Below are positions 5,947-40,055 of a DNA stretch of 54,249 nucleotides, one piece after another. The stretch lies in the NCBI GenBank assembly GCA_964349845.1, contig CAYGHQ010000001.1, forward strand, positions 1-54,249, in the 5' to 3' direction. Both the position numbers and the translations under genes were made by a program. Each line of letters starts with the position of its first letter. The stretch's first letter is position 1. The notes under the pieces are model-generated. The model searched no databases, was not told where the DNA came from, and saw nothing but the letters and a program-made list of their open reading frames with translations. Source of the DNA: an uncultured Candidatus Saccharibacteria bacterium (GTDB taxonomy: Bacteria > Patescibacteriota > Minisyncoccia > Phycocordibacterales > CAYGHQ01).

Positions 5947-5994
5947 AATAGGAAAGTATAGCACACAAAATAATTCAAAAAAATTAGCACTCTT

Positions 5995-6230
5995 GAATTA
6001 ACCTAATTTCTAATTGATCTAATTAACCTAATAAATGTCTAAGCACCAATACCCAATTGGGGTTTAGTTATTGGGAATTTTATTAGGTGAACCCCGTACA
6101 AGAAGTTAACATTGTCTATAAGATTACTTTAAATTATCTTCTATTTACATATCTTCTTGTTACTAAAAGATATATAGTTAACTTTCTGTACGGGGTGAAT
6201 TAGGTAATTAGGTTAATTAGAAATTTTTTA
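5995..6230. repeat. Long imperfect palindromic intergenic element (family C, copy 1)
   Basis: The inner arms ACCCCGTACAAGAAGTTAAC (6090..6110) and GTTAACTTTCTGTACGGGGT (6177..6196) pair. The outer arms are built from AATTAACCTAAT / ATTAGGTTAATT words. The segment 6066..6092 recurs in reverse orientation at 26308..26340. Confidence 0.8.
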
Positions 6231-6298
6231 TATTATAATATTCCCGTACATGATTTGAAAAAATTAATTATTGAAACGGTGGCAGAAGCGAGAGATAA

Positions 6299-7201
6299 TT
6301 ATGTTTCCCTATTCCTCTCCATCTCTTTTCTGGAAAAATTCTCAAAGAGAGCGCTGTCTTCTTTGTGGAAAACAGCCACGTCATAGTAAGGAAAAGTTCT
6401 TCCGTATGATTTGCCCGGGGTATAATAATTGAGTTCGGAGATAAGTTTTTTGTCCGCCAAATCGGCCGACAAGAGAAACCTTCCATAATTATCGTAATAT
6501 ACGATTTTTTCATAACCAAGATTAAAAAGCGTTTCCATCGTGTCCAGCCCTTTTTCGCCCAAATGTTCAAATTCGCTTCTGGCGTACTCAAAGAAGATGA
6601 CCGGTTTAGCAGTCCGCAGATAATCTTTTCCGCCTCTTATTATTTTGAAATCAAATCCGTCGGCATCTATCTTGAGAAGCTTGGCATTCTTCCATTTTGG
6701 ATTTTCTTTCACGAACTTGTCCAGCGTGGAAATTTTTATTTTATTCTCCCCCGTTTTTTCGGAAAAAATTTTCATCGTGCCGTTTTCGTTTTTCATTTCC
6801 GCCGAAAAATCCCCCTCCTTGTCCCCTAAAAACATTTTAAACACGGACACGTTTTCGACGGCCAGGGCGTTCTTCTCCAAAAAAGAAAAAAATTTCTCGT
6901 CTCCGTCTATGGAAGCTATGGGAGAAGAAGGGCAGGACGATCTTATGAAAGACGAGGTGTCGCCCACGTTGCCCCCCACATCAATAACTTTCAAATCCGG
7001 ATATTTTTCATAAACGGCTTTGGAGAGCCGGACGATATTTTGGGCGTATTCGGGATGCTTTTTTAAAATAACGGGCAAGAGGTGTTCGCGGGGAAAGGAA
7101 AGGACGGTGTTTCCAATTTTCCAAGCCCGGGGCTTGTTTTTAAGAATAGTCCGGTCAAGAAAATTGCGGGCTTTGACGGCGATTCTAATTAGAATAGGCA
7201 T
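6299..7201 (-). CDS. FkbM-family SAM-dependent methyltransferase
   Basis: 300 aa. It has the VIDVGGNVGD glycine motif and LLKIDADGFDFKII, which is characteristic of the Methyltransf_21/FkbM family. TATAAT lies 6 nt upstream of the ATG. Confidence 0.7.
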   Translation of the reverse strand: MPILIRIAVKARNFLDRTILKNKPRAWKIGNTVLSFPREHLLPVILKKHPEYAQNIVRLSKAVYEKYPDLKVIDVGGNVGDTSSFIRSSCPSSPIASIDGDEKFFSFLEKNALAVENVSVFKMFLGDKEGDFSAEMKNENGTMKIFSEKTGENKIKISTLDKFVKENPKWKNAKLLKIDADGFDFKIIRGGKDYLRTAKPVIFFEYARSEFEHLGEKGLDTMETLFNLGYEKIVYYDNYGRFLLSADLADKKLISELNYYTPGKSYGRTFPYYDVAVFHKEDSALFENFSRKEMERNRET

Positions 7202-7261
7202 GGAGCAATTATACCGAAAGAAAAGGAAAGGGGAAATGGGAGAAAAGGGGAATGATACTTA

Positions 7262-7289
7262 TTGACACTTATTGACACTTGGCTATAAT
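7262..7289 (+). promoter_or_regulatory. Consensus sigma70 promoter with a duplicated TTGACAC box
   Basis: TTGACA at 7262..7267, a 16-nt spacer, then TATAAT at 7284..7289. A second TTGACAC sits 10 nt downstream of the first, inside the spacer. The ATG at 7299 is only 9 nt after the -10. Confidence 0.7.
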
Positions 7290-7298
7290 ATACAATAT

Positions 7299-7544
7299 AT
7301 GGAAGAAATCAAGGTAAATTCAATCTATACAACTGACGAAACGAGAGAGATTCTCCGCGTAAGCCCGAGCACCATAAAACGCCTTTTAAAGAAGGGGCTT
7401 ATTCGCGCCAATAAAGTCGGAGGACAATATCGCATACTCGGGAAAGAGATACTGCGGCTGGTCTCTCCTCAAGCAGAGAAAAAGGCGGTAGAATCATACC
7501 AAGAATTAAAGAGGAAGATAGTTAGGAAGGTGAAGAATTGGTAA
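7299..7544 (+). CDS. Small helix-turn-helix DNA-binding protein (excisionase/MerR-like HTH_17 type)
   Basis: 81 aa from the ATG at 7299. TDETREILRVSPSTIKRLLKKGLIRANKVGGQYRI matches the excisionase-family HTH pattern. Confidence 0.6.
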   Translation: MEEIKVNSIYTTDETREILRVSPSTIKRLLKKGLIRANKVGGQYRILGKEILRLVSPQAEKKAVESYQELKRKIVRKVKNW

Positions 7545-7573
7545 GAAATCCAAAATCCAAATCATGAAAATTA

Positions 7574-7729
7574 AAAAAGCACAAAATTCTAAATACGAAA
7601 TCCGAAACAAATCCGGAAAATTCTAAATTCTAAATCCAAAACAAAAAATCTTTATCTTTGTTTTGGTTATTTATATTTTCTTTATTTGGCTTCGTTTGTT
7701 TCGAATTCCGGATTTCGTGCTTCGGATTT
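7574..7729. repeat. Family E intergenic palindromic element, copy 1
   Basis: The arms are built from CGAAATCCGAAACAAA words around a central CCAAAACAAA/TTTGTTTTGG hairpin. The right arm 7677..7729 is the reverse complement of 8565..8617 with one mismatch. Confidence 0.85.
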
Positions 7730-7737
7730 AAATTGTT

Positions 7738-8562
7738 ATGGCTGAAACTTTAAAAATCATCAAACCAAAAAAAGTGTGGAGCTTGGACGACATCCGGGAA
7801 ATCTGGCAATACCGCGAGCTCATGTTTTTTTTCGTCTGGAGAGATATTAAAGTCCGATACAAGCAGACGGTAATCGGCATTCTTTGGGCGATAATTCAGC
7901 CATTCATCACAATGGCCGTTTTCAGCGTCTTTTTTGGCAAGCTCGCGGGCATTCCCTCGGACGGAATCCCCTATCCTATCTTTGTTTACGTAGGATTATT
8001 GTTCTGGCAATTTTTTTCCGGCTCGCTTGGAGAAACCGCAAATACCTTGATTGGAAACGCCTCCATCATCACTAAAGTTTATTTCCCACGGCTTATCCTT
8101 CCGATAGCCGATACGGCAACCAAGCTCGTGGATATGTTCTTTGCCAGCATTATTTTAGTCGGCCTTATGTTCTATTACGGATACACCCCTCACCTCGTTG
8201 GAATTCTTCTTATCCCCATACTTCTTTTTATATCATTTTTAATCGCAGTGGGAGGCGGATTAATCTTGGCTTCCGTCAATGTCAAATACCGAGACATTCG
8301 CTACGCCCTCCCCTTCTTTCTCCAAATTCTCCTTTTTTTGACGCCGGTTATTTATCCCGGAAGCATCGCCGGAAAATATTCGTGGCTTATGGCTCTTAAT
8401 CCGATGACAGGGGTAATCAAAGCGGCCAGAAACGGCATTTTGGGAGTAGCGCCGGTAAATTGGCTCCTGCTTTTCCTTTCCTTCCTCGGAGCGCTTCTGG
8501 TTTTTGCCATAGGAGTGATTGTCTTTAAGAAAACAGAGCGGTACTTTGCCGACATCGTATAA
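7738..8562 (+). CDS. wzm: ABC-2 type polysaccharide/teichoic-acid export permease
   Basis: 274 aa with six hydrophobic segments. The N-terminal signature is YRELMFFFVWRDIKVRYKQTVIGILWAIIQPF. It lies adjacent to the Wzt/TagH-like ATPase. Confidence 0.85.
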   Translation: MAETLKIIKPKKVWSLDDIREIWQYRELMFFFVWRDIKVRYKQTVIGILWAIIQPFITMAVFSVFFGKLAGIPSDGIPYPIFVYVGLLFWQFFSGSLGETANTLIGNASIITKVYFPRLILPIADTATKLVDMFFASIILVGLMFYYGYTPHLVGILLIPILLFISFLIAVGGGLILASVNVKYRDIRYALPFFLQILLFLTPVIYPGSIAGKYSWLMALNPMTGVIKAARNGILGVAPVNWLLLFLSFLGALLVFAIGVIVFKKTERYFADIV

Positions 8563-8564
8563 AT

Positions 8565-8729
8565 AAATCCGAAGCACGAAATCCGAAATTCGAAACAAAC
8601 GAAGCCAAATAAAGAAAGACCAAATAATCCAAAGCAAAAAACCAACAGAAAAACATTCTTCGTTTTGGATTTTGAATTTTCTACATTTTCTGGATTTGTT
8701 TCGGATTTCGAATTTCGGATTTCGTGCTT
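8565..8729. repeat. Family E intergenic palindromic element, copy 2
   Basis: The left arm AAATCCGAAGCACGAAATCCGAAATTCGAAACAAACGAAGCCAAATAAAGAAA pairs imperfectly with the right arm 8688..8729. Confidence 0.85.
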
Positions 8730-8780
8730 AATTAAATTTTCTTAGAATTCAGATTTTTTTAAATAAATTTAATTAATTGT

Positions 8781-10049
8781 ATGTCTAACTCAATCATAGA
8801 AATCAAAGGCGTCAGCAAGCGCTACAATATCACCCACGAACACGGGAAATATATCGCCCTCAGGGACATTCTGGCGAACATTCTCCGGAATCCTTTTAAA
8901 TATATTTGGACAAAAACCAGAAAAGCCGTAGGCAGAGATAGCGTGGAAAAATTCTGGGCGCTTCGCGACATAAACCTTACAGTTGAAAAAGGAGAAGTAA
9001 TCGGCATTATAGGAAGCAACGGCGCCGGCAAATCCACTCTCCTCAAAATTTTGACAGGCATCACTCCGCCCACCGAAGGGGAAGTTATTATGCGGGGGAA
9101 AGTTGCCTCTCTTCTTGAAGTAGGCACCGGATTTCATCCAGAACTTACTGGCCGAGAAAATATTTTTTTAAACGGCGCGATCCTCGGAATGACTAGGAAA
9201 GAGATCGCCCAGAAATTTGACAAAATTGTTGAATTCTCCGGAGTGGAGAAATTTATAGACACGCCCGTCAAAAAGTATTCTTCCGGAATGTATGTCCGTC
9301 TGGCTTTTTCCGTGGCCGCCCATATGGAACCGGACATTCTTCTTGTTGACGAAGTTCTGGCCGTAGGCGACGCCGAATTCCAAAAAAAATGCCTCGGCAA
9401 AATGGACGAAGTGACAAAGGGAGCGGGCCGGACTATTCTTTTCGTTTCCCACAACATAGCGGCCATCCAAAGAATATGCAACAAGACTGTTTTGCTGGAT
9501 AAAGGAAAGATGGTAATGTTCGGCCCCACGAACGAGGTCATAGAACGCTACCTCTCCGGAAATCGGGAGAATAGCGGGGAAACGCTTTTTAATACTGATC
9601 CGAAAAAAGACGCGGAAGTTACCGAAATATCTTTTGAAAACGAGAAGGGAGAAAAATCGGGAACATTCCTATCAAACGAGGCTTGGAAAATAAAAATCAA
9701 ATATACCGTCAAGAAAAAAGCTCCCAAAACTATGGTAACTCTTGAATTCTACTCAAATACAGGCACGATGTTTTTTATGACCACCGACAGCGATAAAGAG
9801 AAAGATCTTTTGGATAAGCCAGCCGGAGAATATGAAGCTGTTCTCTCTGTTCCGAGAAACATGCTCAATCCGGGAAGTTATACGCTCCGCGTTACCATCC
9901 AGTCGCCATATCAGAAAGTCTATGAGGGAGTGGAAGGCTTACAGGTCTCTATCCAGTCCTCGGGAGAAAATATCCGGGACAGCTATTTCCGCGGAAAATA
10001 TTACGGCTTTCTGGCGATGGAGATGGAGTGGCAAACTAAAAAACTATGA
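8781..10049 (+). CDS. wzt: Polysaccharide ABC exporter ATP-binding protein with a C-terminal extension (Wzt_C-like)
   Basis: 422 aa. It has Walker A GSNGAGKST, the signature YSSGM, and Walker B ILLVDE. About 170 further residues form a beta-rich C-terminal domain, as in Wzt proteins that recognise the glycan terminus. Confidence 0.85.
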   Translation: MSNSIIEIKGVSKRYNITHEHGKYIALRDILANILRNPFKYIWTKTRKAVGRDSVEKFWALRDINLTVEKGEVIGIIGSNGAGKSTLLKILTGITPPTEGEVIMRGKVASLLEVGTGFHPELTGRENIFLNGAILGMTRKEIAQKFDKIVEFSGVEKFIDTPVKKYSSGMYVRLAFSVAAHMEPDILLVDEVLAVGDAEFQKKCLGKMDEVTKGAGRTILFVSHNIAAIQRICNKTVLLDKGKMVMFGPTNEVIERYLSGNRENSGETLFNTDPKKDAEVTEISFENEKGEKSGTFLSNEAWKIKIKYTVKKKAPKTMVTLEFYSNTGTMFFMTTDSDKEKDLLDKPAGEYEAVLSVPRNMLNPGSYTLRVTIQSPYQKVYEGVEGLQVSIQSSGENIRDSYFRGKYYGFLAMEMEWQTKKL

Positions 10050-11263
10050 GGATAGCTATCATTCTCTCGGGCATAGCGGGAAAATCCGGAACAGAGAGGC
10101 AGGCTCTGTCGCTAGCCAGCGCGCTTAAAAGAGAAGGGCATCATGTTGATTTATTCTGTTACTGGCACTCTCCGGATAAATGCTACACGGAGCTTGTCAA
10201 AGGGTTTGATGTTCATTACGTAAAACTTCTCAAGGAAGAAAAACGCGCGGAAAAACCCGCCGGCCGAAAGTTCTTGCCCGAAAAAATCCGCTACTTCGGG
10301 AGAATATATTTTCCGCTTATCAAAAAAATTCTTTTCACGGAAAAGCCTTTGAAAGAGCTCAAAGAGCTTATGGAAAAAACCAATCCCCTTTCCTTTTATG
10401 ATGTCCTTAACCTGCACGAATACGAGATATGCGGAATTGCCCGGATTTTGAGGCACCCGAATATAGTCTGCATGCTAAATGACGCCGGACACACCATCTC
10501 GCGGGGGAAACATCCCATTCATAATTTTTTCTACAATATTCTCCAAAGAATTTACAACCGGCTCATCTTCCGAAACATAAAAAAAATTACCGTTCTCAAC
10601 GAAGGAAGCGTGAAAATCTGCCAAGAATCATACGGCCTGACTCCGACAGTAGTCCGAAGCGGAATTGATATTCAGATTTTCAAAGATTTTCCCGCCACAA
10701 GAGAATTTCCACCGAAGACTCTTAAAATCTTCGCTTCCGGCATTTTTTCTCCGCATCGCCGTTTTGAAGATTTGGCGGACGCCATAGAAATCGTCCGAGA
10801 TAAAGGAGTGAAAAATATTGAAGCGGAAATAAATGGAAAGCACGATAGACATCACGAATATTATCTTTTTATCCAAGAGAGAATCCGGCAAAAAAAACTG
10901 GATGGGTATATAAAAATTACAAGCGGTATGTCGGAGGAAGAGCTTCGCCGGAAAATCAGAGATAGCCATATTTTTGTTTTTCCGAATATAAATCAGACGT
11001 GGGGACTTGCCGTTTTTGAAGCGATGCTCGGAGGGTGCGTCCCCATCGTAAATCGGGAAGCGGGAGCAAGCGAAATTCTTACCGATAATAAAAACGCGCT
11101 TCTTGTCAATCCCCTATCGCCCCGTGAAATTGCCGATAAAATCATTTACTTGGCGGAAAATCCGCAAGTCCTCCAAAAAATCTCCGAGGAAGCCCCGAAA
11201 TTCGTAAAAGAAAATCTGTCGTGGGAAAAATACGCGGAAGCAATGCTTAAAGCGTTTAAGTAG
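10046..11263 (+). CDS. Glycosyltransferase family 4 (GT-B, GT1/GT4 type)
   Basis: 405 aa. The C-terminal EX7E-type region is FPNINQTWGLAVFEAMLGGCVPIV. The start overlaps the wzt stop (ATGA). Confidence 0.7.
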   Translation: MRIAIILSGIAGKSGTERQALSLASALKREGHHVDLFCYWHSPDKCYTELVKGFDVHYVKLLKEEKRAEKPAGRKFLPEKIRYFGRIYFPLIKKILFTEKPLKELKELMEKTNPLSFYDVLNLHEYEICGIARILRHPNIVCMLNDAGHTISRGKHPIHNFFYNILQRIYNRLIFRNIKKITVLNEGSVKICQESYGLTPTVVRSGIDIQIFKDFPATREFPPKTLKIFASGIFSPHRRFEDLADAIEIVRDKGVKNIEAEINGKHDRHHEYYLFIQERIRQKKLDGYIKITSGMSEEELRRKIRDSHIFVFPNINQTWGLAVFEAMLGGCVPIVNREAGASEILTDNKNALLVNPLSPREIADKIIYLAENPQVLQKISEEAPKFVKENLSWEKYAEAMLKAFK

Positions 11264-11265
11264 AT

Positions 11266-11527
11266 AAACATACCAATATACAAATAAATCCCTCCCCCGT
11301 AAGAACGGGTACTCCTTACAGGAGCAGTCCACTCTTTCGCTCTCGCCGACTCGAGCTGAAAGAGTCTTGCGAAGCTCCTTAAGGTCGCTTCTCACCCTTT
11401 AAGAAAGGGAGATTTAAATCCTCCTTTATTAAAGGAGGCCCGCCCGAACCGTCCGAAGCGTCCGCTTCGGTACGGGCGGGTGGCCGGTACTCCGGACGGA
11501 GGATTTTATTTGTATATTGGTATGTTT
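11266..11527. repeat. Family F multi-hairpin element, copy 1
   Basis: 30-nt terminal inverted repeats (11266..11295 and 11498..11527, 28/30 complementary) enclose a chain of short GC-rich hairpins. These include CCTCCTTTATTAAAGGAGG (11420..11438) and CCCGCCCGAACCGTCCGAAGCGTCCGCTTCGGTACGGGCGGG (11439..11480). Confidence 0.9.
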
Positions 11528-11557
11528 AATTACTCATAATATTGGTATGTTAACCTC

Positions 11558-14544: not shown

Positions 14545-14568
14545 TTAATGCTGGTATTATTGCAATTT

Positions 14569-14718
14569 TAAAATCCGAAGCACGAAATCCGAAATCCGAA
14601 ACAAAGCCCAAAAATAAAGAAAATTAAAAATTCCAAACAAATTCGGTTACATTTTGAAAATTAGAATTTTGAATTTGCCTTCGTTTGTTTCGGATTTCGT
14701 GCTTCGGATTTCGAATTT
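14569..14718. repeat. Family E intergenic palindromic element, copy 3
   Basis: AAAATCCGAAGCACGAAATCCGAAATCCGAAACAAAGCCC pairs with GCCTTCGTTTGTTTCGGATTTCGTGCTTCGGATTTCGAATTT. It sits between the two transketolase subunit genes. Confidence 0.85.
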
Positions 14719-14728
14719 ACAAAATAAA

Positions 14729-15607
14729 ATGCGCAAACAATTCCCCAAAACAATAGAAAATTTGATGGAAAAAGACAATCGCCTTGTCGTTCTTTTGGGC
14801 GACATCGGCGTTTTTAGTTTCCAAAACGTTTTTTCCCGTTTCCCCGACCGAATTTATAATATCGGCATTTTGGAACAATCTACAATAGGAATGGCATCGG
14901 GACTTGCTATGGAAGGGTTTATTCCCATAGTCCATACCATCGCTCCGTTCTTGGTTGAAAGAGCCTATGAGCAATTAAAAGACGATTTCGGCTATCAGAA
15001 ACTTTCGGGAAAATTCGTAAGCGCCGGAGCATCCTATGACTACTCGGCCTTGGGTTCTACTCACCACTGCCCCGCCGATGTTCCTGTCCTAAAGCAAATT
15101 CCTGAAATGGAAATTGTTTTGCCCGGAACGGGAGAAGAGTTTGATTCCCTTTTTAAAGAAACTTACGCGAACGGACACCCGACTTATTTCCGCTTGAGCG
15201 AAAATAAAAATGACGCAAGCTTCCCTGTCGCTTTTGGAAAAGCAAATGTCGTAAAGCAAGGCAAAAAAGCAACAGTCATTGCCGTAGGGCCGATGCTCAA
15301 AAATGTTTTAACCGCCTGCAAGGACGAAGATGTAACAATTTTGTATTACACGACCGTAAGCCCATTTGACAAAGAGACTCTCCATGAAAATTTTGTCGGA
15401 GACAAAGTGATATTATGCGAGCCGTATTACAGCGGAGCTCTAGCTTTTGACGTTGCAAGCGCCTTGTCAGATAAAAAAGTTGAAACGCATTTTATCGGAG
15501 TTCCTTTGGAATTCTTGCGAAATTACGGAAAAGCTGAAGATCAAGATAATTTTTTGGGCTTGACAGAAGAAGCTATTGGGATAAAAATCAGAAAAATTTC
15601 AATATAA
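14729..15607 (+). CDS. Transketolase, C-terminal (pyrimidine-binding) subunit
   Basis: I chose the ATG at 14729 (MRKQFPKTIENL...); the longer track ORF begins inside the repeat. GILEQSTIGMASGLAMEGFIPIVHT is the Transket_pyr motif. Confidence 0.85.
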   Translation: MRKQFPKTIENLMEKDNRLVVLLGDIGVFSFQNVFSRFPDRIYNIGILEQSTIGMASGLAMEGFIPIVHTIAPFLVERAYEQLKDDFGYQKLSGKFVSAGASYDYSALGSTHHCPADVPVLKQIPEMEIVLPGTGEEFDSLFKETYANGHPTYFRLSENKNDASFPVAFGKANVVKQGKKATVIAVGPMLKNVLTACKDEDVTILYYTTVSPFDKETLHENFVGDKVILCEPYYSGALAFDVASALSDKKVETHFIGVPLEFLRNYGKAEDQDNFLGLTEEAIGIKIRKISI

Positions 15608-15611
15608 TGCT

Positions 15612-15713
15612 AATCCACGAATCTTATGCGAATGCCACGAATAACACGAATCCACAAAGTGGGATTCTTTATTCGTAAATTTGCATGATTTGTGGCATTT
15701 GCATGCATTCGTA
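15612..15713. repeat. Intergenic imperfect palindrome built from CACGAAT words
   Basis: The central stem is CGAATCCAC aaa GTGGGATTCT. The flanking pairs are CGAATAA/TTATTCG and AATGCCAC/GTGGCATT. Confidence 0.7.
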
Positions 15714-15723
15714 TATTTGAATT

Positions 15724-17056: not shown

Positions 17057-17130
17057 TACACAAAAATAATAAACTCTCTTGATATTTTTTGCAATAGAAA
17101 AAGCGCCCGCTTCACGGGCGCTTTGCTGTT

Positions 17131-17709: not shown

Positions 17710-17750
17710 AAAGAACTCCTTTTGTTGATTATTACATCCGCAAATTGCTA

Positions 17751-17780
17751 CACACTAGAACACACTAGAACACACTAGAA
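17751..17780. repeat. Three exact tandem copies of CACACTAGAA
   Basis: Read directly: a 10-nt unit repeated 3 times, in the divergent intergenic region between the Nudix gene and the radical SAM gene. Confidence 0.95.
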
Positions 17781-19694: not shown

Positions 19695-19732
19695 GTTATC
19701 AGTTCTTAAACACAAGCCCCGCCGACTTGATC

Positions 19733-19940: not shown

Positions 19941-20099
19941 TGCGGAAATGGCGGAAATGGGGACAGCCAGAAATGGGGACCCAGAAATGCCCAGAAATGG
20001 AAATGGTGGAAATGGGGACAGCCACCATTTTTTACCTTTTCGTGTGTGGTGGAAATGGTGGAAATGGGGACAGCCACCATTTTTTACCTTTTCGTGTGT
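19939..20099. repeat. REP-like hairpin array (left flank of the RAYT gene)
   Basis: Two exact 45-nt copies of ATGGTGGAAATGGGGACAGCCACCATTTTTTACCTTTTCGTGTGT lie at 20003..20047 and 20055..20099. Each contains the hairpin AAATGGTGG(12 nt)CCACCATTT. Degenerate GAAATGGGGAC units precede them. Confidence 0.85.
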
Positions 20100-20108
20100 C
20101 ATAATAAT

Positions 20109-20780
20109 TTATAGTTTTTTAGGTCGGCCGGGAAAACGCAAGGTTGATTCAAGGTGATAGGCTGTCACCATTTGATTAACCCATTTTTCTCCCCCGTATG
20201 GTATTCCTTTTGTGACCGAAGCGCGAATAAATTCAAGATCTTCAGGGTTATCCGGTGTATTGACCCATTTAATATAATTGCCAGGAAAAGGTGTTAGGGA
20301 AGGATCAAGCAGTTTCCTTTCTTCTTTTGTCCCATTGATTCTTCGCCAAGCGCTTCCCCACTGCCAGCTTTCGCATTTGTCTGTTATTTTTGCTCTGACA
20401 GGATTGCGTTCCACATACTTTATCAAAGAAAGCAAATAACTATCGGTTTCAACCAAAAAAGACTTGTATCTGCCCTGATAAAGATGACCTGTGCCATTTG
20501 TGTTTGTTAAAGCATGCACTTTGCGAGTGTGGGAGTTAGACAAGCGGTGCATAAAAGTTCCAAGATCTCCGTCTTGTTTCGGATACAAAACAAGGTGCCA
20601 ATGATTTGGCATAATCACATAAGCAAGTATTCTCATATCAACCAATTCTTTAGTTTCAAGCAAAAGTGTTTCAATAATCCGATAGTCCTTCTCAGTATTA
20701 AAAATCTTATACCGCCCATTGGCGCGATTAATGACGTGATAAACCTTATCTCCAATATCAACTCTTGTGTTACGAGGCAT
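20109..20780 (-). CDS. REP-associated tyrosine transposase-like (IS200/IS605-type Y1 HUH transposase, COG1943)
   Basis: 223 aa. The HUH motif is present as NHWHLVL, and GHLYQGRYKSFLVETDSYLLSLIKYVERNPVRA contains the catalytic Tyr region. The gene is flanked by inverted copies of the GGGGACAGCCACC hairpin. Confidence 0.8.
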   Translation of the reverse strand: MPRNTRVDIGDKVYHVINRANGRYKIFNTEKDYRIIETLLLETKELVDMRILAYVIMPNHWHLVLYPKQDGDLGTFMHRLSNSHTRKVHALTNTNGTGHLYQGRYKSFLVETDSYLLSLIKYVERNPVRAKITDKCESWQWGSAWRRINGTKEERKLLDPSLTPFPGNYIKWVNTPDNPEDLEFIRASVTKGIPYGGEKWVNQMVTAYHLESTLRFPGRPKKL

Positions 20781-20954
20781 AGTTAAAATATTATATCATA
20801 CTTTTTGTTAAACAATGGTGGCTGTCCCCATTTGTCCACCATTAATGACGTGATAGACCTTATCTCCAATATCAACTCTTGCGTTACGAGGCATGGTGAA
20901 AATATTATATCATACTTTTTGTTAAACAATGGTGGCTGTCCCCATTTGTCTCCC
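20727..20954. repeat. 114-bp tandem duplication covering the RAYT 5' end, its upstream region and a REP
   Basis: 20727..20840 and 20841..20954 align with only a few substitutions. Each copy contains AATGGTGGCTGTCCCCATTT, the reverse complement of the left-flank REP core. Confidence 0.9.
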
Positions 20955-20962
20955 CATTTGTC

Positions 20963-21331
20963 TTGGTTGGAGTAAGTAGCCTTGATTTCCGAAAGAAGGT
21001 AAGGATATTTTTCATGGGGGGCATTTGGAATACTTAAGCGGGGCTTGGGATAAACGGCTTCGAGACCCATCTTCCGCATTAGTCTTCGGATATGGTGGCG
21101 GCCAATGGAGATTCCTCTACTCTCTAGTTCCGGTTTCATTCTTCTTGATCCGTAGAAAGGGTAAGCGGTGTAAACTTCGTCAATGGCGTTCATGGCTCTA
21201 ATGTCTTCCGGGGAAATGATCGGTTTGTAGTAAAAACTCTCGCGGGAGACGCCTAAAAGGGCGCTTTGGCGGGAGAGGGATATTTCTTTATGGGAAGGAA
21301 CGATCAATGATCTTTTTTCCTCATGATTCAA
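20963..21331 (-). pseudogene. IS3-family orfB fragment (HTH_21 region only, no rve/DDE domain)
   Basis: Only about 123 transposase-like residues remain. The rest of the track ORF (DKWGDKWGQPPLFNKKYDIIF...) is a translated REP/duplication sequence. Confidence 0.75.
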
Positions 21332-26263: not shown

Positions 26264-26290
26264 CCGAACACCGAAAAAACCAGCGTTCGG

Positions 26291-26346
26291 TAATTTCTAA
26301 TTTCTAATTCACCTAATTACCTAATAAAATTCCCAATAAATCCCAT
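26291..26346. repeat. Family C element, partial copy 2
   Basis: TTCACCTAAT..AAAATTCCCAATAA matches the reverse complement of 6066..6092. It uses the same TAATTTCTAATT / CCTAATTACCTAAT words. Confidence 0.7.
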
Positions 26347-26357
26347 TAGAAAGTTAT

Positions 26358-26466
26358 TTAGAACTTATGCATTTTCGCAGAAAATAATCGTTTCTCTTCT
26401 GTCATTCCCGCGAAGGCGGGAATCCAGTCTTTAAATCACAAAGCCCAAATAACACATAAGTCCTAA
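26358..26466. repeat. Family G MITE-like element, copy 1
   Basis: The termini TTAGAACTTATGC ... CACATAAGTCCTAA are inverted. The core hairpin is GTCATTCCCGCGAAGGCGGGAATCC. Confidence 0.75.
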
Positions 26467-26472
26467 TACTAA

Positions 26473-27237: not shown

Positions 27238-27270
27238 CCTCATTCGCCTAGGCGAATGAGGTTATTTTTA
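27235..27270 (+). terminator. Intrinsic terminator (30-nt perfect palindrome plus T-tract)
   Basis: TAACCTCATTCGCCTAGGCGAATGAGGTTA followed by TTTTT. The stop codon is part of the stem. Confidence 0.75.
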
Positions 27271-27289
27271 TCTTAACCCCTGACCCTTA

Positions 27290-27317
27290 TTGACACCTTT
27301 TGACACCAGAGTATAAT
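27290..27317 (+). promoter_or_regulatory. Consensus sigma70 promoter with a duplicated TTGACAC box
   Basis: TTGACA at 27290..27295, a 16-nt spacer, then TATAAT at 27312..27317. A second TTGACAC sits exactly 10 nt downstream of the first. The geometry is identical to 7262..7289. Confidence 0.7.
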
Positions 27318-27326
27318 AGAAAATAA

Positions 27327-27510
27327 GTGAAATAAGCCATAAGAATGGCGAAATATAATCATCAGAATAATTGAAATTAGCTCGAAGACTCGCGAAAATT
27401 TCGCGAATCTAATTTCTATTTATTTCGGCTTCGTAAATTTCGTGAGGTCTTCCGAACTTATTTCATTCTTATGTATTTCGGCTTCGTAAATTTCGCGAAT
27501 CCCGATTAGC
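27327..27510. repeat. Intergenic imperfect palindrome with an internal 25-nt direct repeat
   Basis: The arms GTGAAATAAGCCATAAGAATGGCGAAATA and CGAACTTATTTCATTCTTATGTATTTCG pair. TATTTCGGCTTCGTAAATTTCG(T/C)GA occurs at 27421..27445 and 27474..27498. It lies in the presumed 5' UTR of the neuB-fusion gene. Confidence 0.75.
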
Positions 27511-27544
27511 GGGAGATCGTATTTCTATAAATTTTGATATCTAT

Positions 27545-29455: not shown

Positions 29456-29468
29456 CACATCTCTAAAT

Positions 29469-30458: not shown

Positions 30459-30477
30459 AAAATTATAGACAATAATC

Positions 30478-30607
30478 TTAGGGCCTACGCGTTTGAGAAA
30501 ATTTCCAAAGCACTGGATTCCCCATCTCCCCTGCCTGAGGGGAGATGCCGAGTCTGCGAGGCAGAGGGGTGGGAGCGCGGGAATGACACCAAACGCGTAA
30601 GTCCTAA
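30478..30607. repeat. Family G MITE-like element, copy 2 (opposite orientation, enlarged loop)
   Basis: The termini are TTAGGGCCTACGCGTTTG ... CAAACGCGTAAGTCCTAA. The reverse complement contains GTCATTCCCGCG ... GGGAATCC, with an extra internal hairpin CATCTCCCCT/AGGGGAGATG. Confidence 0.75.
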
Positions 30608-30613
30608 AATCTA

Positions 30614-32229: not shown

Positions 32230-32236
32230 AAAAATC

Positions 32237-33079: not shown

Positions 33080-33128
33080 ATTCGAACAAGGAATTAAAAC
33101 TTTTTAATAATTCATATATTCAAATAAT

Positions 33129-34310: not shown

Positions 34311-34323
34311 TCTAAGCTTAGGT

Positions 34324-34397
34324 TAAAATTCTATGCATCTGTCTTACAGATATTTGAACAGATATTTGAAAAACAAGATCAGATGCATAGAATTTTA
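34324..34397. repeat. Hairpin with a perfect 18-bp stem and a tandem 12-nt repeat in the loop
   Basis: TAAAATTCTATGCATCTG (34324..34341) pairs with CAGATGCATAGAATTTTA (34380..34397). The loop contains CAGATATTTGAA twice (34347..34370). Confidence 0.9.
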
Positions 34398-34428
34398 CCT
34401 ATTCACCTAAAGTCATTTTAAATCATAA

Positions 34429-35196: not shown

Positions 35197-36194
35197 ATAA
35201 ATATAACTTCTGCACATTATTTGATAAAGGATATCTCCTCAAGGGGCTGGCTCTTTACCAGTCTTTGGCAAAATTTCTTCCCGATTTTACCTTGTGGATT
35301 TTATGTATGGATGAAGAATCCTATGAAATAATATCGCGCCTAAATCTTCCCCATACCCGCCCGATAAGACTTTCTGATTTTGAAAACGCAAATCCCGAGC
35401 TTAAAGAAATCAAAAAAACAAGAAGCTCCGTGGAATACTGCTGGACTCTTTCCCCATCGCTCCCTCTTCATATTATAAAGACCAACGATATTCCTTCAAT
35501 AACCTATCTTGATTCAGATCTTTTCTTCTACACCTCCCCGGAAGTAATTTTTAAAGAAGCCGGAAAATCCTCCATATCCATAATCGCTCAAGACGTGGTG
35601 GAATCAAGAAAAGGAAACGAGGGAATTACCGGCAAATATAATGTCGGAATGCTTATCTTCAAGAAAGATGAAAACAGCCTCGCCTGTCTCAAGTGGTGGA
35701 AAGAGAAATGCGATGAATGGTGCTACGACCGACCGGAACCCGAAAGATACGGGGATCAGAAATATCTGGATTATTTTGAAGAAAAATTCCAAGGAGTCCA
35801 TATCGTGGCCAACAAAGGAGCCGGAGTAGCGCCGTGGAACGTGGAAAAAAAAGAAATAAGCGAAAGAGGAGGAGCGGTTTTTGTGGAAAAAAACCTTTTG
35901 GTTTTTTTCCACTTCTCCAGATTTTTCCTTTATCCGCCGTCACTCATTCTTCCTTATGGTCCCGATACCGTCTACAATTACACCAAATCCGGAGAAGCCA
36001 AAAACCTGATTTACAAGCCCTACGCTCTAACCCTTTACGCCATTCTCCGGAAAGTCAGAGGAATAAATCCGGAATGGAAATACGGACTGACCGAAAGACC
36101 GCCTTTTATAGCAAGCGTCCAAGAATTTTTGAACAACTCAATGAAAAAAAAAAAAAAAAAAGCTTTAAAAAAATTATTAAAAATTAATAAATAA
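35193..36194 (+). CDS. Nucleotide-diphospho-sugar transferase (GT-A, GT8-like) with a poly-lysine C-terminus
   Basis: 333 aa. It has ITYLDSDLFFY (DxD) and NVGMLIFKKD. The tail MKKKKKKALKKLLKINK is encoded by the A18 tract. Confidence 0.45.
   Translation: MNKYNFCTLFDKGYLLKGLALYQSLAKFLPDFTLWILCMDEESYEIISRLNLPHTRPIRLSDFENANPELKEIKKTRSSVEYCWTLSPSLPLHIIKTNDIPSITYLDSDLFFYTSPEVIFKEAGKSSISIIAQDVVESRKGNEGITGKYNVGMLIFKKDENSLACLKWWKEKCDEWCYDRPEPERYGDQKYLDYFEEKFQGVHIVANKGAGVAPWNVEKKEISERGGAVFVEKNLLVFFHFSRFFLYPPSLILPYGPDTVYNYTKSGEAKNLIYKPYALTLYAILRKVRGINPEWKYGLTERPPFIASVQEFLNNSMKKKKKKALKKLLKINK
36144..36161 (+). repeat. Homopolymeric A18 tract inside the coding sequence
   Basis: Counted directly: 18 consecutive A, 33 nt before the stop of the GT8-like gene. 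Confidence 0.95.
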
Positions 36195-36201
36195 ATAGAA
36201 C

Positions 36202-37173
36202 ATGGCTGTTCAAAAAAAAGTTATCGTAACCGGCGGGTTGGGTTTTATCGGAAGCTATTACGTGAAAAAACTATTGGATAAAGGCTATTCCGTTGTAAAT
36301 ATAGACAAAGTAACCTATGCCGCCAGAAGAGATCTGGATTTTGAAAATTACCCGAACTACGAGTTCATCAGAGAAGATATTTGCAACCTTGCCCACCTGC
36401 CCCCGGGAGCGGATTATCTGGTTAATTTTGCCGCGGAATCGCACGTGGATAACTCCATAACCGCCAACGAAGTATTTTTTGAGAGTAATGTCAAAGGCGT
36501 CTATAATCTTCTGGAGCTTCTCCGATCTAAAGATCCGACAGACAGGCCTGTTTTTATCCAAATTTCCACCGATGAAGTCTACGGCGATATTATGGAAGGA
36601 TCTTCCAAAGAAGAAGACCGCCTCAATCCTTCCAATCCCTATTCTGCTTCCAAAGCGGCGGCTGAAGAACTCATAAGAGGTTGGGCTAGAACTTACGGCA
36701 TAAAATTCAAAATCTGCCGGTCAAGCAACAATTACGGCTTCGGCCAGTATCCGGAAAAACTTATCGCCAAAACCATTAGCTTGGCGGAAAAAGACATAAA
36801 AATGACCGTTCACGGAGACGGCTCTTACGAGAGAGAGTGGACGTACGTGGAAGACAATTGCGAAGCTATTTTTATGGTAATGGAACAGGGGGTTTCAGGC
36901 GGAATTTACAATATTTCTTCGGGAGAAATGCTGGCCAATCTTGAGATTGTGAAAAAAGTCCTAAAAGCCATGGGTAAGCCCGAGAATTTTTTTGAATTCG
37001 TGGGAAACAGAATAGGCCAGGACATCAGATATTCCATCAATTCTGAGAAAATCCGCAAACTCGGATGGAAGCCGACCGTCAATCTTGAAGAGTATTTGCC
37101 AAAATACATAAAACTTATAAATACTCCCCATAAATCCCCTTATAAAAAAATCCCTTCTCCGCTTAAAAAATAA
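36202..37173 (+). CDS. rmlB: dTDP-glucose 4,6-dehydratase
   Basis: 323 aa with VTGGLGFIGS, AAESHVDNS, STDEVYG, YSASKAA and NNYGFGQYPEKLI. Confidence 0.9.
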   Translation: MAVQKKVIVTGGLGFIGSYYVKKLLDKGYSVVNIDKVTYAARRDLDFENYPNYEFIREDICNLAHLPPGADYLVNFAAESHVDNSITANEVFFESNVKGVYNLLELLRSKDPTDRPVFIQISTDEVYGDIMEGSSKEEDRLNPSNPYSASKAAAEELIRGWARTYGIKFKICRSSNNYGFGQYPEKLIAKTISLAEKDIKMTVHGDGSYEREWTYVEDNCEAIFMVMEQGVSGGIYNISSGEMLANLEIVKKVLKAMGKPENFFEFVGNRIGQDIRYSINSEKIRKLGWKPTVNLEEYLPKYIKLINTPHKSPYKKIPSPLKK

Positions 37174-37176
37174 AAA

Positions 37177-37608
37177 ATGAAAAATAAATTTTACGAAATT
37201 ATAAAGTTTCCGTCTTTTTCCGGAAAAACCGGCACACTCACCATGCTAGAACACGGCAAAAATCCAAATAGCCTTGTCCCTTTTCCCATAAAAAGGGTTT
37301 TTACGATACGAGGAATGAAAGGGGAAGATGAAAGAGGCGGGCACACTCACCACAAAACCCGCCAGATTATTGTCTGCCTCCGAGGATCATGCCGGATAAA
37401 TCTGGATGACGGAAAGAAAAAAACTTTCGCGGATCTCAAAGATCCAAGCGAGGGTATCACCCTAGAACCCTACATCTGGCACACTATAAGCGATTTCAAA
37501 GGAGATCCGATTCTTATGGTTTTGGCGAGTACGGAATATGATGAGAGAGATTATATAAGAGATTACAGCCAGTTTTTGAAACTAGTTTCAAAAACTGGCA
37601 ATTACTAA
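37177..37608 (+). CDS. dTDP-4-keto-6-deoxyhexose 3,4-ketoisomerase (FdtA/QdtA, WxcM-like cupin)
   Basis: 143 aa. FPIKRVFTIRGMKGEDERGGHTHHKTRQIIVCLRGSC ... EYDERDYIRDY is the FdtA/QdtA pattern. The sequence cannot decide between the galacto and gluco product. Confidence 0.8.
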   Translation: MKNKFYEIIKFPSFSGKTGTLTMLEHGKNPNSLVPFPIKRVFTIRGMKGEDERGGHTHHKTRQIIVCLRGSCRINLDDGKKKTFADLKDPSEGITLEPYIWHTISDFKGDPILMVLASTEYDERDYIRDYSQFLKLVSKTGNY

Positions 37609-37876
37609 TTTCCAATATCCAATTTCCAATGAAATTAATAAAATCCTCAGGCGGAATACCGCCACCTCCTTTATTAAAGGAGGAATTAATTCTCCCTTTT
37701 TTAAAGGGAGCCCGCCCGAACCGTCCGAAGCGGACGCTTCGGTACGGGCGGGTACCCGTCTTCGGAGGGAGGGATTTAAGAAATTTCCGGCATTTCATTG
37801 TCCTTCAAATTCTTCAGGATGGTGAGCCTGTTGAATCCAGAAATTGGTAATTGAAAATTGGAAATTTTAATTCAAT
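37601..37876. repeat. Family F multi-hairpin element, copy 2
   Basis: The outer arms are built from CCAATTTCCAAT / ATTGGAAATT words. The core contains CCTCCTTTATTAAAGGAGG (37665..37683), CTCCCTTTTTTAAAGGGAG (37692..37710) and CCCGCCCGAACCGTCCGAAGCGGACGCTTCGGTACGGGCGGG (37711..37752). Confidence 0.9.
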
Positions 37877-38966
37877 GATTCCCTTCTTTGACGCTACGCG
37901 CAAAACTAAAAAAGAGAAAGGGGAGATTCTCTCGGCCGTGAGAAATGTTTTGGACTCCGGCCGATTTGTCATGGGAGAAAAGATGGCGAATTTTGAGAAA
38001 GAATTTTCTTCTTATCTCGGCGTTTCTTTCGGAGTCGGAGTCAATTCCGGAACAGACGCGCTTAAAATCGCCCTTCGCTCCCTCGGAATTAAGGAAGGGG
38101 ATGAAGTCATTACCGTTTCAAATACCGCCACTCCGACCGTAAGCGCGATTAGAGAAATCGGCGCTATCCCCGTTTTTACGGATATTGACGAATACTTCAC
38201 TATGAAAGTTTCCGGCCTTCCGCGGAAGATTTCCAAGAAAACCAAAGCGATTGTTCCCGTCCATCTCTACGGACATCCGGCGGATATGGAGGAGATTATG
38301 AAATTTGCCCGGGAAAATAATCTTTTTGTCGTGGAAGACTGCGCCCAATCCGCGGGAGCGGAAATCGGGGGCAAGAAAGTCGGAAGTTTCGGAAACGCTT
38401 CCGCATGGAGCTTTTACCCAACAAAAAATTTATCCGCCTGCGGAGACGGAGGAATGATAACCACAAAAAGCAAAGAAATCGCCGAGAAATCGGCAATGCT
38501 CCGGATGTACGGCATGAAAGGAACCTACTTCTCTCACGTGGAAGGCTGGAACAGCCGGCTTGATGAAATCCAATCCGCCATACTTTCAATAAATTTAAAA
38601 TATTTGGATAAAAGAAACCAAAGGAGAATTGAAATTGCTGGACAGTATATCTCAAAAATTAAAAATCCCGCCATAATTCTCCCTAAAAAAAGACCGGAAA
38701 CCAAACACGTTTTCCACCTTTTTGTCGCAAGAACAAAAAAACGGGATAAATTGACGGAATATCTCAAAGAGAAAAGTATCGGGATGGGAATCCATTATCC
38801 CTTCCCCGTTCACCTTCAAAAAGCCTATGAATTTTTGGGATACAAAGAAGGGTCGTTGCCCGAAACGGAAAAAGTGGCCAAGGAAATTCTCTCCCTGCCT
38901 ATTTTCCCGGAATTGACGGATGAAGAAATAGAGTACATCATTAAAGAAATAAACAACTTCAAGTAG
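37875..38966 (+). CDS. DegT/DnrJ/EryC1/StrS-family PLP aminotransferase (FdtB/QdtB-like sugar 3-aminotransferase)
   Basis: I chose the ATG at 37875 (MIPFFD...). GVNSGTDAL, EDCAQSAGA and SFYPTKNL (catalytic Lys) are present. It is adjacent to the isomerase and dehydratase genes. Confidence 0.85.
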   Translation: MIPFFDATRKTKKEKGEILSAVRNVLDSGRFVMGEKMANFEKEFSSYLGVSFGVGVNSGTDALKIALRSLGIKEGDEVITVSNTATPTVSAIREIGAIPVFTDIDEYFTMKVSGLPRKISKKTKAIVPVHLYGHPADMEEIMKFARENNLFVVEDCAQSAGAEIGGKKVGSFGNASAWSFYPTKNLSACGDGGMITTKSKEIAEKSAMLRMYGMKGTYFSHVEGWNSRLDEIQSAILSINLKYLDKRNQRRIEIAGQYISKIKNPAIILPKKRPETKHVFHLFVARTKKRDKLTEYLKEKSIGMGIHYPFPVHLQKAYEFLGYKEGSLPETEKVAKEILSLPIFPELTDEEIEYIIKEINNFK

Positions 38967-38977
38967 GACGCAAATCA

Positions 38978-39817
38978 ATGGTAATTGTAAAACTACAAGG
39001 AGGTCTCGGAAATCAGATGTTTCAATATGCCGCCGGAAGAGCGGCTTCTTTGCGCGTTGAAACAGAACTCAAGCTGGATGTGAGTTCGTTTCAGGAATAC
39101 AAGCTCCGGAAGTATTCTCTCCAAAATTTCAAGATAAAAGCGGATTTCGCTTTATCGGAAGAGACCAGAGAAGCCAAGGGAAATTTTTTAAAAAATCTCG
39201 TCTCCCCTTCGTGGATTAAGGAAGAGCCTTTTTCTCCGTGGAATTCTAAACTGCTTTCTCTTAAAGACAACGCCTATCTTGACGGCTACTGGCAAAGTGA
39301 AAAATATTTCAAAGATAAAGAGGAAAATATCCGGCAGGAATTTTCTCTTAAAAAACCTTTTCAAGCGGAAGCCGGAAAAATTTCCGCCCAGATGGAGGCC
39401 ACGGAAAATCCCGTTTCCATCCATGTTCGCCGAGGGGATTACGTTTCCAAAAAGCATTTAAATGAAATCTTCGGAGTATGCCATCCGGAATATTACGAGA
39501 AAGCGGTGGCTTTCGTAGCTGGAAAAACAAGCCATCCTGTTTTTTTCATATTTTCAGATGATATCGCGTGGGTCAAGGAGAATTTAAAAATTCAATTCCC
39601 CGCCGTTTTCGTTTCTAAATCAGAAATAGAGGATTTTGAAGAGCTTGCTCTTATGAGTGAGTGTAGACACAATATCATAGCCAATTCCACGTTCAGCTGG
39701 TGGGGAGCGTGGCTTAACAGGAATCCTGAAAAAATCGTTATTGCTCCCAAAAAGTGGTTTAATCATCCTTCTTTGAACACAAAGGACTTGATACCAGAAG
39801 GGTGGGTAAAGATTTAA
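38978..39817 (+). CDS. Glycosyltransferase family 11 (alpha-1,2-fucosyltransferase)
   Basis: 279 aa with GGLGNQMFQYAAGRA, HVRRGDYV and NSTFSWWGAWL. Confidence 0.85.
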   Translation: MVIVKLQGGLGNQMFQYAAGRAASLRVETELKLDVSSFQEYKLRKYSLQNFKIKADFALSEETREAKGNFLKNLVSPSWIKEEPFSPWNSKLLSLKDNAYLDGYWQSEKYFKDKEENIRQEFSLKKPFQAEAGKISAQMEATENPVSIHVRRGDYVSKKHLNEIFGVCHPEYYEKAVAFVAGKTSHPVFFIFSDDIAWVKENLKIQFPAVFVSKSEIEDFEELALMSECRHNIIANSTFSWWGAWLNRNPEKIVIAPKKWFNHPSLNTKDLIPEGWVKI

Positions 39818-39972
39818 ATTCGAAGCACGAAATCCGAAATTCGAAACAAACGAAGCCAAATAGAGTCAAAATTCAAATATCTAAACGGGATTTTTATGTG
39901 TCCTTGTTTAGAATTTGAGATTTTCTTCTATTTCGGGTTTTGTTTCGGATTTCGTGCTTCGAATTTCGGATT
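39815..39972. repeat. Family E intergenic palindromic element, copy 4
   Basis: AAATTCGAAGCACGAAATCCGAAATTCGAAACAAACGAAGCCAAATAGAG pairs with TTCTATTTCGGGTTTTGTTTCGGATTTCGTGCTTCGAATTTCGGATTT. Confidence 0.85.
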
Positions 39973-39980
39973 TAATAAAT

Positions 39981-40029
39981 AGATTTCCCGCCTTGGTTCA
40001 ACCCGCTCACAATAAGCCACGGGAATGAC
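39981..40029. repeat. Family G core, copy 3
   Basis: The reverse complement reads GTCATTCCCGTGG...GGCGGGAAATC. This is the same core hairpin ends as at 26401 and 30519..30587. Confidence 0.55.
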
Positions 40030-40055
40030 AAACCCACGCCTTAATTTTATACATC

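Follow-up and report, generated by a model that had tools for sequence, protein, structure and literature searches.

The window considered here, i.e., the whole stretch of DNA that was analysed, comprises 54,249 nucleotides (positions 1 to 54,249 of contig CAYGHQ010000001.1) from an uncultured Candidatus Saccharibacteria bacterium. Almost all of its genes belong to a glycan locus, and glycosyltransferase genes run on to at least 62 kb of the contig. Along the locus we found a Wzy_C/TPR gene, an FkbM methyltransferase, an HTH_17 gene, wzm (ABC2_membrane), wzt (ABC_tran plus Wzt_C), a glycosyltransferase of family 4 (GT4) and a GT10-like gene, epimerases, a transketolase split into N and C genes, a short-chain dehydrogenase/reductase (SDR), B12 radical-SAM enzymes, a NeuB fusion, many methyltransferases, DegT, GT11 and GT2. 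The closest wzm homologues with a named source (68–76% identity) are labelled Patescibacteria or candidate phyla radiation (CPR), so that a CPR host is probable. Our subject is the set of long palindromic elements that fill the spacers of this locus, and above all the family that we call E, with four copies in the window (E1–E4). The original prediction took these elements for an insulator, processing-site or cassette-boundary system; we consider them more probably to be selfish hairpins that colonised the operon spacers.

The elements were evaluated by folding every spacer of at least 40 nt against 60 dinucleotide shuffles. All 12 spacers in which palindromes had been claimed were strongly structured, with z values from −3.0 to −12.0: 5947–6298 (z −5.7), 7545–7737 (−5.6), 8563–8780 (−8.5), 11264–11557 (−12.0), 14545–14764 (−5.8), 15608–15723 (−5.9), 26264–26472 (−3.1), 27238–27544 (−3.0), 30459–30613 (−5.2), 34311–34428 (−7.8), 37609–37850 (−7.3) and 39818–40055 (−7.4). 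For comparison, coding windows of 200 nt (24, drawn at random) had z = −0.22 ± 1.26, and spacers with divergent promoters stayed at about 0. The palindromes are thus real, and their arms were found at the coordinates claimed. Between 7.5 and 40 kb an element is present in 11 of the 12 spacers of at least 40 nt that separate co-oriented + strand genes, and the spacer survey confirmed that the genes between elements are tightly packed. The “stuttering” of the arms corresponds to period-7 tandem words (AAATCCG/TTTCGGA, TAATTTC and CAATTTC/GAAATTG) detected by Tandem Repeats Finder. Several elements are composite in the predicted folds, with AT-rich word arms around chains of small GC-rich hairpins. 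Altogether at least six mutually unrelated sequence families are represented, with copies in either orientation.

Family E is the best represented, and the four copies announced for it were all recovered. In the window they are 150–170 nt long, have 28–34% GC and contain no open reading frame (ORF). A covariance model (R1) built from 43 foreign E copies and no window copies matched all four over its full length (model 1–148 of 148; 105–121 bits, E-values of the order of 1e-20 to 1e-23), and also matched a fifth copy at contig 63.6 kb. E1 (7575–7731; 105.5 bits, E 7.5e-20) has a mixed CGAAAT/CTAAAT dialect and ends 7 nt upstream of the wzm ATG. E2 (8563–8731; 112.7 bits, E 2.2e-21) lies between wzm and wzt, begins immediately behind the wzm stop codon and has a perfect 24-bp stem (8572–8595 / 8706–8729). 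E3 (14569–14720; 120.9 bits, E 4.2e-23), with 35-nt arms of 89% complementarity, separates the transketolase N and C genes. E4 (39814–39975; 111.5 bits, E 4e-21) overlaps the stop codon of GT11 and again has a perfect 24-bp stem; the interval 39815–40029, first described as one element, holds E4 and a separate remnant (39976–40029) with a G half-site CGGGAATGAC at 40020–40029. The separation of wzm from wzt, and of transketolase N from C, had been pointed out before, and the annotation of the flanking genes shows both splits to be correct.

All five E copies of the contig, within 64 kb, share on one arm the signature AACAAA(C/T)GAAGCCAAATA, which was absent from 1.21 Mb of foreign loci containing more than 200 family members. 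E2, E4 and the fifth copy have it on their left arm, E1 and E3 on their right. E1 is thus inverted relative to E2 and E4, and E copies stand in both orientations within co-directional operons. By this private signature, E has multiplied within this lineage.

The same family is found far outside it. We scanned 596 Gb of genomes, one genome per species, for exact matches to the 19-nt E core GAAGCACGAAATCCGAAAT, for which about 4 matches would be expected by chance. At least 119 genome stretches carried it, with at least 12 phylum labels in the record titles: Desulfobacterota, Planctomycetota, many Patescibacteria, Omnitrophota, Binatia, Chloroflexota, Acidobacteriota, Verrucomicrobiota/Lentisphaerota, Fibrobacterota, Bacteroidota, Gammaproteobacteria and Actinomycetota. 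Some of the matches are on contigs of 0.8–7.5 Mb or in complete genomes; Planctomicrobium sp. SH661 (NZ_CP195791.1) and Desulfobacterales bin60 (CP070694.1) are two complete genomes with E. Of 114 testable copies, 103 had the core paired with a downstream arm, and the elements had a median length of 143 nt. The mean GC of E-family elements elsewhere was 0.37, against 0.53 for their hosts (range 0.36–0.73), and element GC tracked host GC (r = 0.73), a composition that appears foreign and partly ameliorated toward the host.

The neighbourhoods of the foreign copies show no preference for glycan genes. Among the 211 ORFs that flank them are those for ribosomal proteins S2 and S8, ATP synthase a, tRNA synthetases, SHMT, GlnA, PGK, purine genes and TatC; we found one GDP-mannose dehydratase and no GT1/GT2 excess, so the suggested enrichment of element copies in glycan loci was not seen for E. 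The occupied spacers were co-directional in 69% of cases, like a random sample of gene pairs, and the orientation of E relative to host genes was unbiased (18 same vs. 12 opposite). In other genomes E is, then, spread over spacers generally, a distribution that the original prediction had itself set against a boundary role. The density of E is about 1 per 13 kb here, whereas the foreign loci have one extra copy in roughly every 30 kb. A search of the window against Rfam gave no match that attained the gathering score of its family, the E and C elements had no BLAST match among the PLSDB plasmids, and IMG/VR yielded one E match and no C match, for which reason phages are not an obvious vehicle. 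A literature search by topic, family name and sequence words found no description of family E. The Nostocales short tandemly repeated repetitive (STRR) sequences and small dispersed repeats were ruled out as a source by the taxonomy of the 19-mer matches and of the wzm homologues.

Some foreign copies do not lie in spacers. E sequence runs in frame and free of stops inside housekeeping genes of metagenome-assembled genomes (MAGs) at L100:7061-8000, L089:2778-5102, L059:3320-4764, L096:6111-6815 and L078:321-1139; two of these have the label Patescibacteria, and the rest are Saccharibacteria or unclassified. The genes concerned are a RarA-like AAA ATPase, LeuRS, LepA (two segments), DNA polymerase III delta' (HolB) and an FAD oxidoreductase; in the RarA-like ATPase a whole E hairpin, ca. 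32 amino acids, stands between Walker A and B. In loci from several phyla (L072, L033, L078, L077, L048, L118 and L088) the E arms are broken by inserts of about 22–45 nt, e.g., CCTTCGACAAGCTCAGGGCAGG, that look hairpin-forming, i.e., nested mini-elements inside a larger repeat. The GC-rich chains within the C composites of the window may be of the same kind.

The clearest lead to the nature of E came from loci in which its two arms enclose a gene. The E left arm is followed by a 121-aa ORF, and this by the E right arm, in L107 (Patescibacteria), L116 (Deltaproteobacteria) and L017 (Pirellulales). The ORF belongs to PF05635, “23S rRNA-intervening sequence protein,” and to TIGR02436, “four helix bundle protein.” It is the ORF named S23p in intervening sequences of 23S rRNA, and is homologous to Avd, an accessory protein of diversity-generating retroelements. 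Its nearest PDB entry is 2RLD; the three proteins are 65–66% identical across three phyla. A protein-based metagenome scan then gave 600 candidate stretches, 567 of them relatives of the cassette ORF. Of the best 80 relatives, 36 had an E-type arm on each side by pattern search and 24 on a single side; the remaining 20 were inspected by eye, and most of these had a CTAAAT-word variant or degenerate arms. The start of the ORF, ATGACCGAAA, is located inside the inner stem of the cassette, and an AATGACC relic of it is kept in 44 of 78 ORF-less copies, as an internal deletion of the parent element would leave; the E copies of the window have lost it. These shared ends and relics mark E as the ORF-less form of the S23p hairpin cassette. 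None of the 20 ORF-bearing relatives with long flanks was located in rRNA; only tRNA genes were nearby. Long elements that seemed to have other cargo mostly turned out to be pairs of adjacent elements, or arms that pair across host genes, and were discarded.

The arms of the cassettes change together. Heptad slippage ruins the alignment, and RNAalifold accordingly gave 8 pairs in one run and none in another, which is why we used a contingency test on word variants instead. The variants switch jointly (CGAAAT/ATTTCG 63, CTAAAT/ATTTAG 7, mixed 4; Fisher p = 1.8e-7), with the caveat that the CTAAAT copies may form one clade. In the protein-selected cassettes the duplex energy was better with own arms than with those of other cassettes (−37.3 vs. 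−34.4, p = 0.02), and CTAAAT-variant left arms gained 8–19 kcal/mol when paired with their own right arms instead of those of the CGAAAT variant. In the 19-mer-selected set own and cross-copy pairing did not differ (−36.1 vs. −34.9, p = 0.2). Since the cassette arms co-vary and pair best with their own partner, the hairpin is maintained. The cassettes also split partner genes in other genomes, namely the large and small subunits of aconitase-family enzymes and the 2Fe-2S and Moco subunits of the xanthine dehydrogenase type, which makes insertion into operons a general habit of the family. The aconitase junction holds an S23p cassette in about ten contigs (L147, L158, L180, L186, L188, L194, L203, L204, L208 and L017); their arms, of differing word variants, suggest long vertical persistence with compensating changes.

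The remaining families are less widespread. Two copies of family F were expected, and alignment gave three arms across two sites. The composite hairpin at 5995–6230 has outer F arms of TAATTxx words (6005–6025 / 6205–6225) around two inner hairpins, with period-9 words, and a solo F arm of TAATTTC words without partner is at 26291–26325. The interval 26291–26466, described earlier as a palindrome, does contain element sequences, but as this solo arm plus a G module rather than as a single hairpin. Both copies of C were recovered (11396–11486 and 37668–37758, 84% identity over 91 nt): the first, a small GC-rich hairpin chain, is the core of a composite element at 11259–11534 with 37-nt outer arms of 89% complementarity, and the second is surrounded by CCAATTT-word (period 7) arms in the composite at 37597–37883. 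Of the three copies proposed for G, only that at 26401–26424 is the full 24-nt module, GTCATTCCCGCGAAGGCGGGAATC, a small GC-rich hairpin; the other two share just a half-site of 10–12 nt. One of them is in the G-type composite hairpin at 30478–30607, with outer stem CTTAGGGCCTACGCGTTTG / CAAACGCGTAAGTCCTAA, where the half-site CGCGGGAATGAC is broken by a nested insert, and the other is that of the remnant after E4. An H-type hairpin with CACGAAT-type words was found at 15608–15704. The element at 34319–34403 is a simple hairpin, near-perfect, whose stem measures about 30 bp. The K hairpin, of CGTAAATTTCG words, covers 27307–27525 (+ strand). The hairpin first reported there, at 27327–27510, is thus present, but its spacer (27238–27544) also holds an ordinary terminator and a consensus promoter, downstream of which K would fall in the leader of the NeuB block.

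Outside this contig, F, C and K had no matches. The G module was found in four foreign loci of other phyla, where it forms an inverted pair; Desulfobacterales, another deltaproteobacterial MAG and a Saccharibacteria MAG are among the hosts. H-type CACGAAT-word arms recur in several phyla, and similar hairpins are present in L127, L091 and further loci. Similar elements are also located outside the range first described, at 1136–1209 and 43963–44002, besides the fifth E copy. The element at 1136–1209 is a perfect palindrome of 74 bp between convergent genes (spacer z −8.9). It is loopless, as is a second of 54 bp that abuts the end of the window (54196–54249), and perfect palindromes as long as these are unusual.

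The proposal that the elements form a dedicated insulator or cassette-boundary system delimiting exchangeable glycan modules can be confronted with the two closest homologous loci, both from Patescibacteria: L124 (wzm 76% identical) and L127 (72%). In its favour, nearly every spacer between the co-oriented genes holds an element, and F, E1, C, K and G adjoin genes that differ from those of L124; for instance, a non-homologous gene, X, stands between NeuB and a methyltransferase with G on one side. Gene content breaks at 10 of the 11 junctions that can be compared with L124, and elements (these same five) are found at 5 of the 10 breakpoints. Four others are free of elements (wzt|GT4, GT10|epimerase, NeuB|X and methyltransferase|MptE), and the fifth is a divergent-promoter spacer. 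The single adjacency conserved with L124, wzm|wzt, is the one occupied by E2. This comparison has low power and offers no support for a boundary role, nor for the idea that the blocks between elements are shuffled as units. Moreover, the loci of the relatives are equally mosaic, yet their operons have no palindromic elements: the spacers of L124 and L127 add up to about 700 nt in 20.8 kb, the wzm–wzt gap is 4 nt in both and R1 finds no match there. Together with the arbitrary housekeeping flanks of E under at least 12 phylum labels and the use of at least six unrelated families in both orientations, this leaves a system tied to the glycan locus without support, and we regard it as improbable. 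L127 does have other word-stutter hairpins, with CACGAAT and TGATCAAT words (2568–2691, 3802–4053 and 4303–4421), that occupy the secA/murB/wzy spacers, with none in its glycan operon.

The other explanations concern RNA or a different mobile system. Consensus promoters scoring 12/12 on the + strand blocks are only two. That at 7262–7289 (+) heads the block HTH_17-wzm-wzt-SDR, with E1, E2, C, E3 and H downstream, and that at 27290–27317 (+) is a near duplicate; most elements are therefore inside long transcription units and are probably co-transcribed within operons. The scarcity of promoters after elements also weighs against reading them as non-canonical terminators or attenuators, i.e., hairpin clusters without a U tract. 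In favour of such a function, very stable hairpins follow right after stop codons, their polarity (A-rich 5' arm, T-rich 3' arm) is similar to that in bidirectional terminators, and termination by hairpin clusters has been proposed in the literature (PMC8355165). However, the elements split obligate partners (wzm|wzt, transketolase N|C, and in other genomes the aconitase and xanthine-dehydrogenase-type subunits). The terminator scan called only small sub-hairpins within them and no whole-element stem with a T run, and terminator-like calls were not enriched (36 vs. 26 ± 6). The true terminators of the window look different (17100–17124, 27238–27261 and 43302–43328); the second, a + strand hairpin followed by a T run, closes the gene block upstream of the 27290 promoter. 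Termination as the function is thus very unlikely, and the original prediction was right that most elements lack a U tract and are not ordinary terminators. A domesticated punctuation, in which the host keeps the hairpins as RNase III or stability determinants setting the relative expression of cistrons, would be less surprising. REP (repetitive extragenic palindromic) elements stabilise the mRNA segments upstream of them. The stems of 24–37 bp are long enough for RNase III, the placement is exactly between cistrons, often from the stop codon, the arms co-evolve with pairing kept, and the aconitase junction has retained its cassettes. The relatives nevertheless run homologous operons without elements, neither orientation is preferred, many families can take one another's place at such positions and copies occur inside coding sequences too, so that we think this unlikely, albeit less so than the boundary system. 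Least credible of all are REP/REPIN repeats mobilised by the Y1 transposase encoded in the middle of the locus (20109–20780, − strand), to which we give almost no weight. Its best NCBIfam match is indeed the REP-associated tyrosine transposase (RAYT; NF047646, 69.9 bits, E 2e-19), but below the family cut-off of 80, and the gene is flanked by inverted copies of its own small hairpin repeat, TGGTGGAAATGGGGACAGCCACCA (19942–20099 and 20727–20963), whereas E, F, C, G and H do not flank it. In E, an AT-rich element of about 150 nt, no GTAG/CGTC-type head is visible by eye in the arm consensus.

[quoted passage not shown] This reading takes in what the analysis showed, i.e., the structure and family membership of the elements, the spread across phyla, the link to the ORF cassette, the absence from relatives and the local amplification. 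Unrelated palindromic families with degenerate tandem-heptamer arms would have invaded the spacers of the glycan locus; E would have arisen as the ORF-less version of a widespread S23p hairpin cassette and multiplied in the lineage, entering between cistrons in either orientation. Transcribed with the operons, the elements would fold into their 24–37-bp stems, a length compatible with RNase III, of which they are most likely substrates by analogy with S23p-type IVSs and the Correia elements of Neisseria. Cleavage would then punctuate the polycistronic mRNA as a side effect, and for the host the result may be neutral or a mild uncoupling of cistrons. The closest characterised relatives, the S23p-type IVSs of rRNA, are cut by RNase III (PMC4990558). 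Among the roles first offered, a processing site is accordingly plausible by this analogy, while insulator and cassette boundary are unsupported.

Several points weigh against the colonisation by selfish hairpins. For E we found neither a transposase nor a target-site duplication, nor an empty-site pair resolved to the nucleotide; in 78 copies no conserved direct repeat was seen outside the ends, which are A/T-rich and could hide a TA or TTAA duplication. Its mobility is deduced from the distribution of copies and the private signature, and PF05635 is not a known transposase. The nature of F, C and K rests on analogy because none of them was found outside the contig. Gene content does differ from that of L124 at the elements F, E1, C, K and G, and the density of E here is above that of the foreign loci, though of the same order. 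An enrichment in glycan loci within the source organism may still exist, as the sampled contig, of 76 kb, is all glycan genes. Finally, E copies in frame within intact genes show that E sequence is not always cleaved.

A wider version of the selfish-hairpin reading would join the E hairpins and their S23p-bearing parents in a single phylum-spanning mobile class, whose movement would depend on a four-helix-bundle protein of the Avd type and its action on the heptad-word hairpin, perhaps via RNA and reverse transcription, with the rRNA IVSs as copies landed in rRNA. Avd acts with a reverse transcriptase in diversity-generating retroelements. PF05635 resembles Avd (PMC10053308), and we advance the idea only as a speculation that is likelier wrong than right by a wide measure. 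If true, it would explain the source of IVSs and imply transposition without a classical transposase, with spacers of operons and, in frame, essential genes as targets. Where IVSs originate and how they move has been an open question since the 1990s, as stated in the work on Coxiella (PMC4990558), and the dispersed ORF-bearing and ORF-less copies, the arm co-variation and the in-frame insertions provide material for testing IVS transposition. For the glycan locus itself, the palindromes would be invaders and not part of the design of the cluster. More generally, Patescibacteria, Planctomycetota, Desulfobacterota, Omnitrophota, Binatia, Chloroflexota and others have in common a non-coding hairpin, about 150 nt long and conserved in its core, that is linked to the puzzling S23p/Avd-like ORF found in the IVSs of rRNA. 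Such elements can also affect the annotation of MAGs through spurious low-complexity ORFs, lengthened predicted N-termini and split operons.

Other features of the window deserve mention. The two promoters belong to modules (7253–7307 and 27281–27335) that are 75% identical, with a perfect TTGACA-16 nt-TATAAT; each is preceded by TGACAC(T/C)TAT repeats of about 10 nt and heads one of two long + strand blocks. The small HTH_17/excisionase-like gene (7299–7544, +) at the head of the wzm operon has the same position in L124 with 70% identity, as a regulator specific to the locus might. A perfect 10-nt tandem repeat, ACACACTAGA, occurs 3.1 times (17750–17780) in the divergent spacer that lies upstream of the B12 radical-SAM gene. 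The 5' end of the RAYT-like gene is duplicated in tandem together with its upstream region (114 nt × 2, 94%), and an IS3-type fragment follows at 20783–21331.

Among the systems already described, the intrinsic terminator, with a GC-rich stem of 5–20 bp, a short loop and a T run, is matched in these spacers only by the separate hairpin at 27238–27261. REP, bacterial interspersed mosaic elements and REPIN-RAYT systems resemble the elements as extragenic palindromes in operons, and the window has a RAYT-like gene, but they are short GC-rich palindromes with a tetranucleotide head flanking the RAYT, unlike the heptad-word arms of E. Cyanobacteria reportedly carry STRR heptamers and small dispersed repeats, the work of Mazel in 1990 and Elhai in 2008, with tandem heptamers in spacers and nested tiny hairpin inserts. 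Set side by side from descriptions, they share with E the spacer heptamers and the tiny inserts nested in the foreign arms, although the words are different and the host is not cyanobacterial. Rickettsia palindromic elements are not known outside one genus. They are found in spacers and in frame in housekeeping genes, as E is in the RarA, LeuRS, LepA, HolB and FAD oxidoreductase genes of related genomes, but their sequences are unrelated to E and the window has no in-frame copy. The transcripts of Correia elements are cut by RNase III. These MITEs, also called NEMIS (Neisseria miniature insertion sequences), are non-coding inverted repeats of 100–300 nt, present in many copies, located in intra-operon spacers and co-transcribed; with them E shares this form, this location and the multiplicity (five copies in 64 kb), an ORF-bearing relative with the same ends and the relic of the ORF start in the ORF-less forms. 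It differs in that a target-site duplication is not visible, in that its ORF-bearing relative encodes a four-helix-bundle protein and no transposase, and in its range, many phyla vs. the one genus of Correia elements. The best correspondence is with the S23p rRNA IVSs, described in Coxiella, Leptospira and others. These are inserted in 23S rRNA (helix 9, 25 or 45) instead of between or inside protein genes, the heptamer of Coxiella, GACAGAT, is unrelated to the E arms and the window copies enclose no PF05635/TIGR02436 ORF. The Coxiella IVS has an S23p ORF, a 28-bp terminal stem, a strain-variable number of tandem heptamers before the ORF and excision by RNase III (PMC4990558). In E a long terminal inverted repeat likewise forms the stem around the element, all the arms contain period-7 arrays and the cargo protein family of the ORF-bearing relatives (L107, L116, L017 and L129–L208) is identical. 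S23p-type IVSs are already regarded as selfish in the literature. The earlier statement that no named class fits holds insofar as no description of this particular family was found, but its MITE/IVS-type hairpin architecture and the heptamers of the Coxiella IVS do provide a match.

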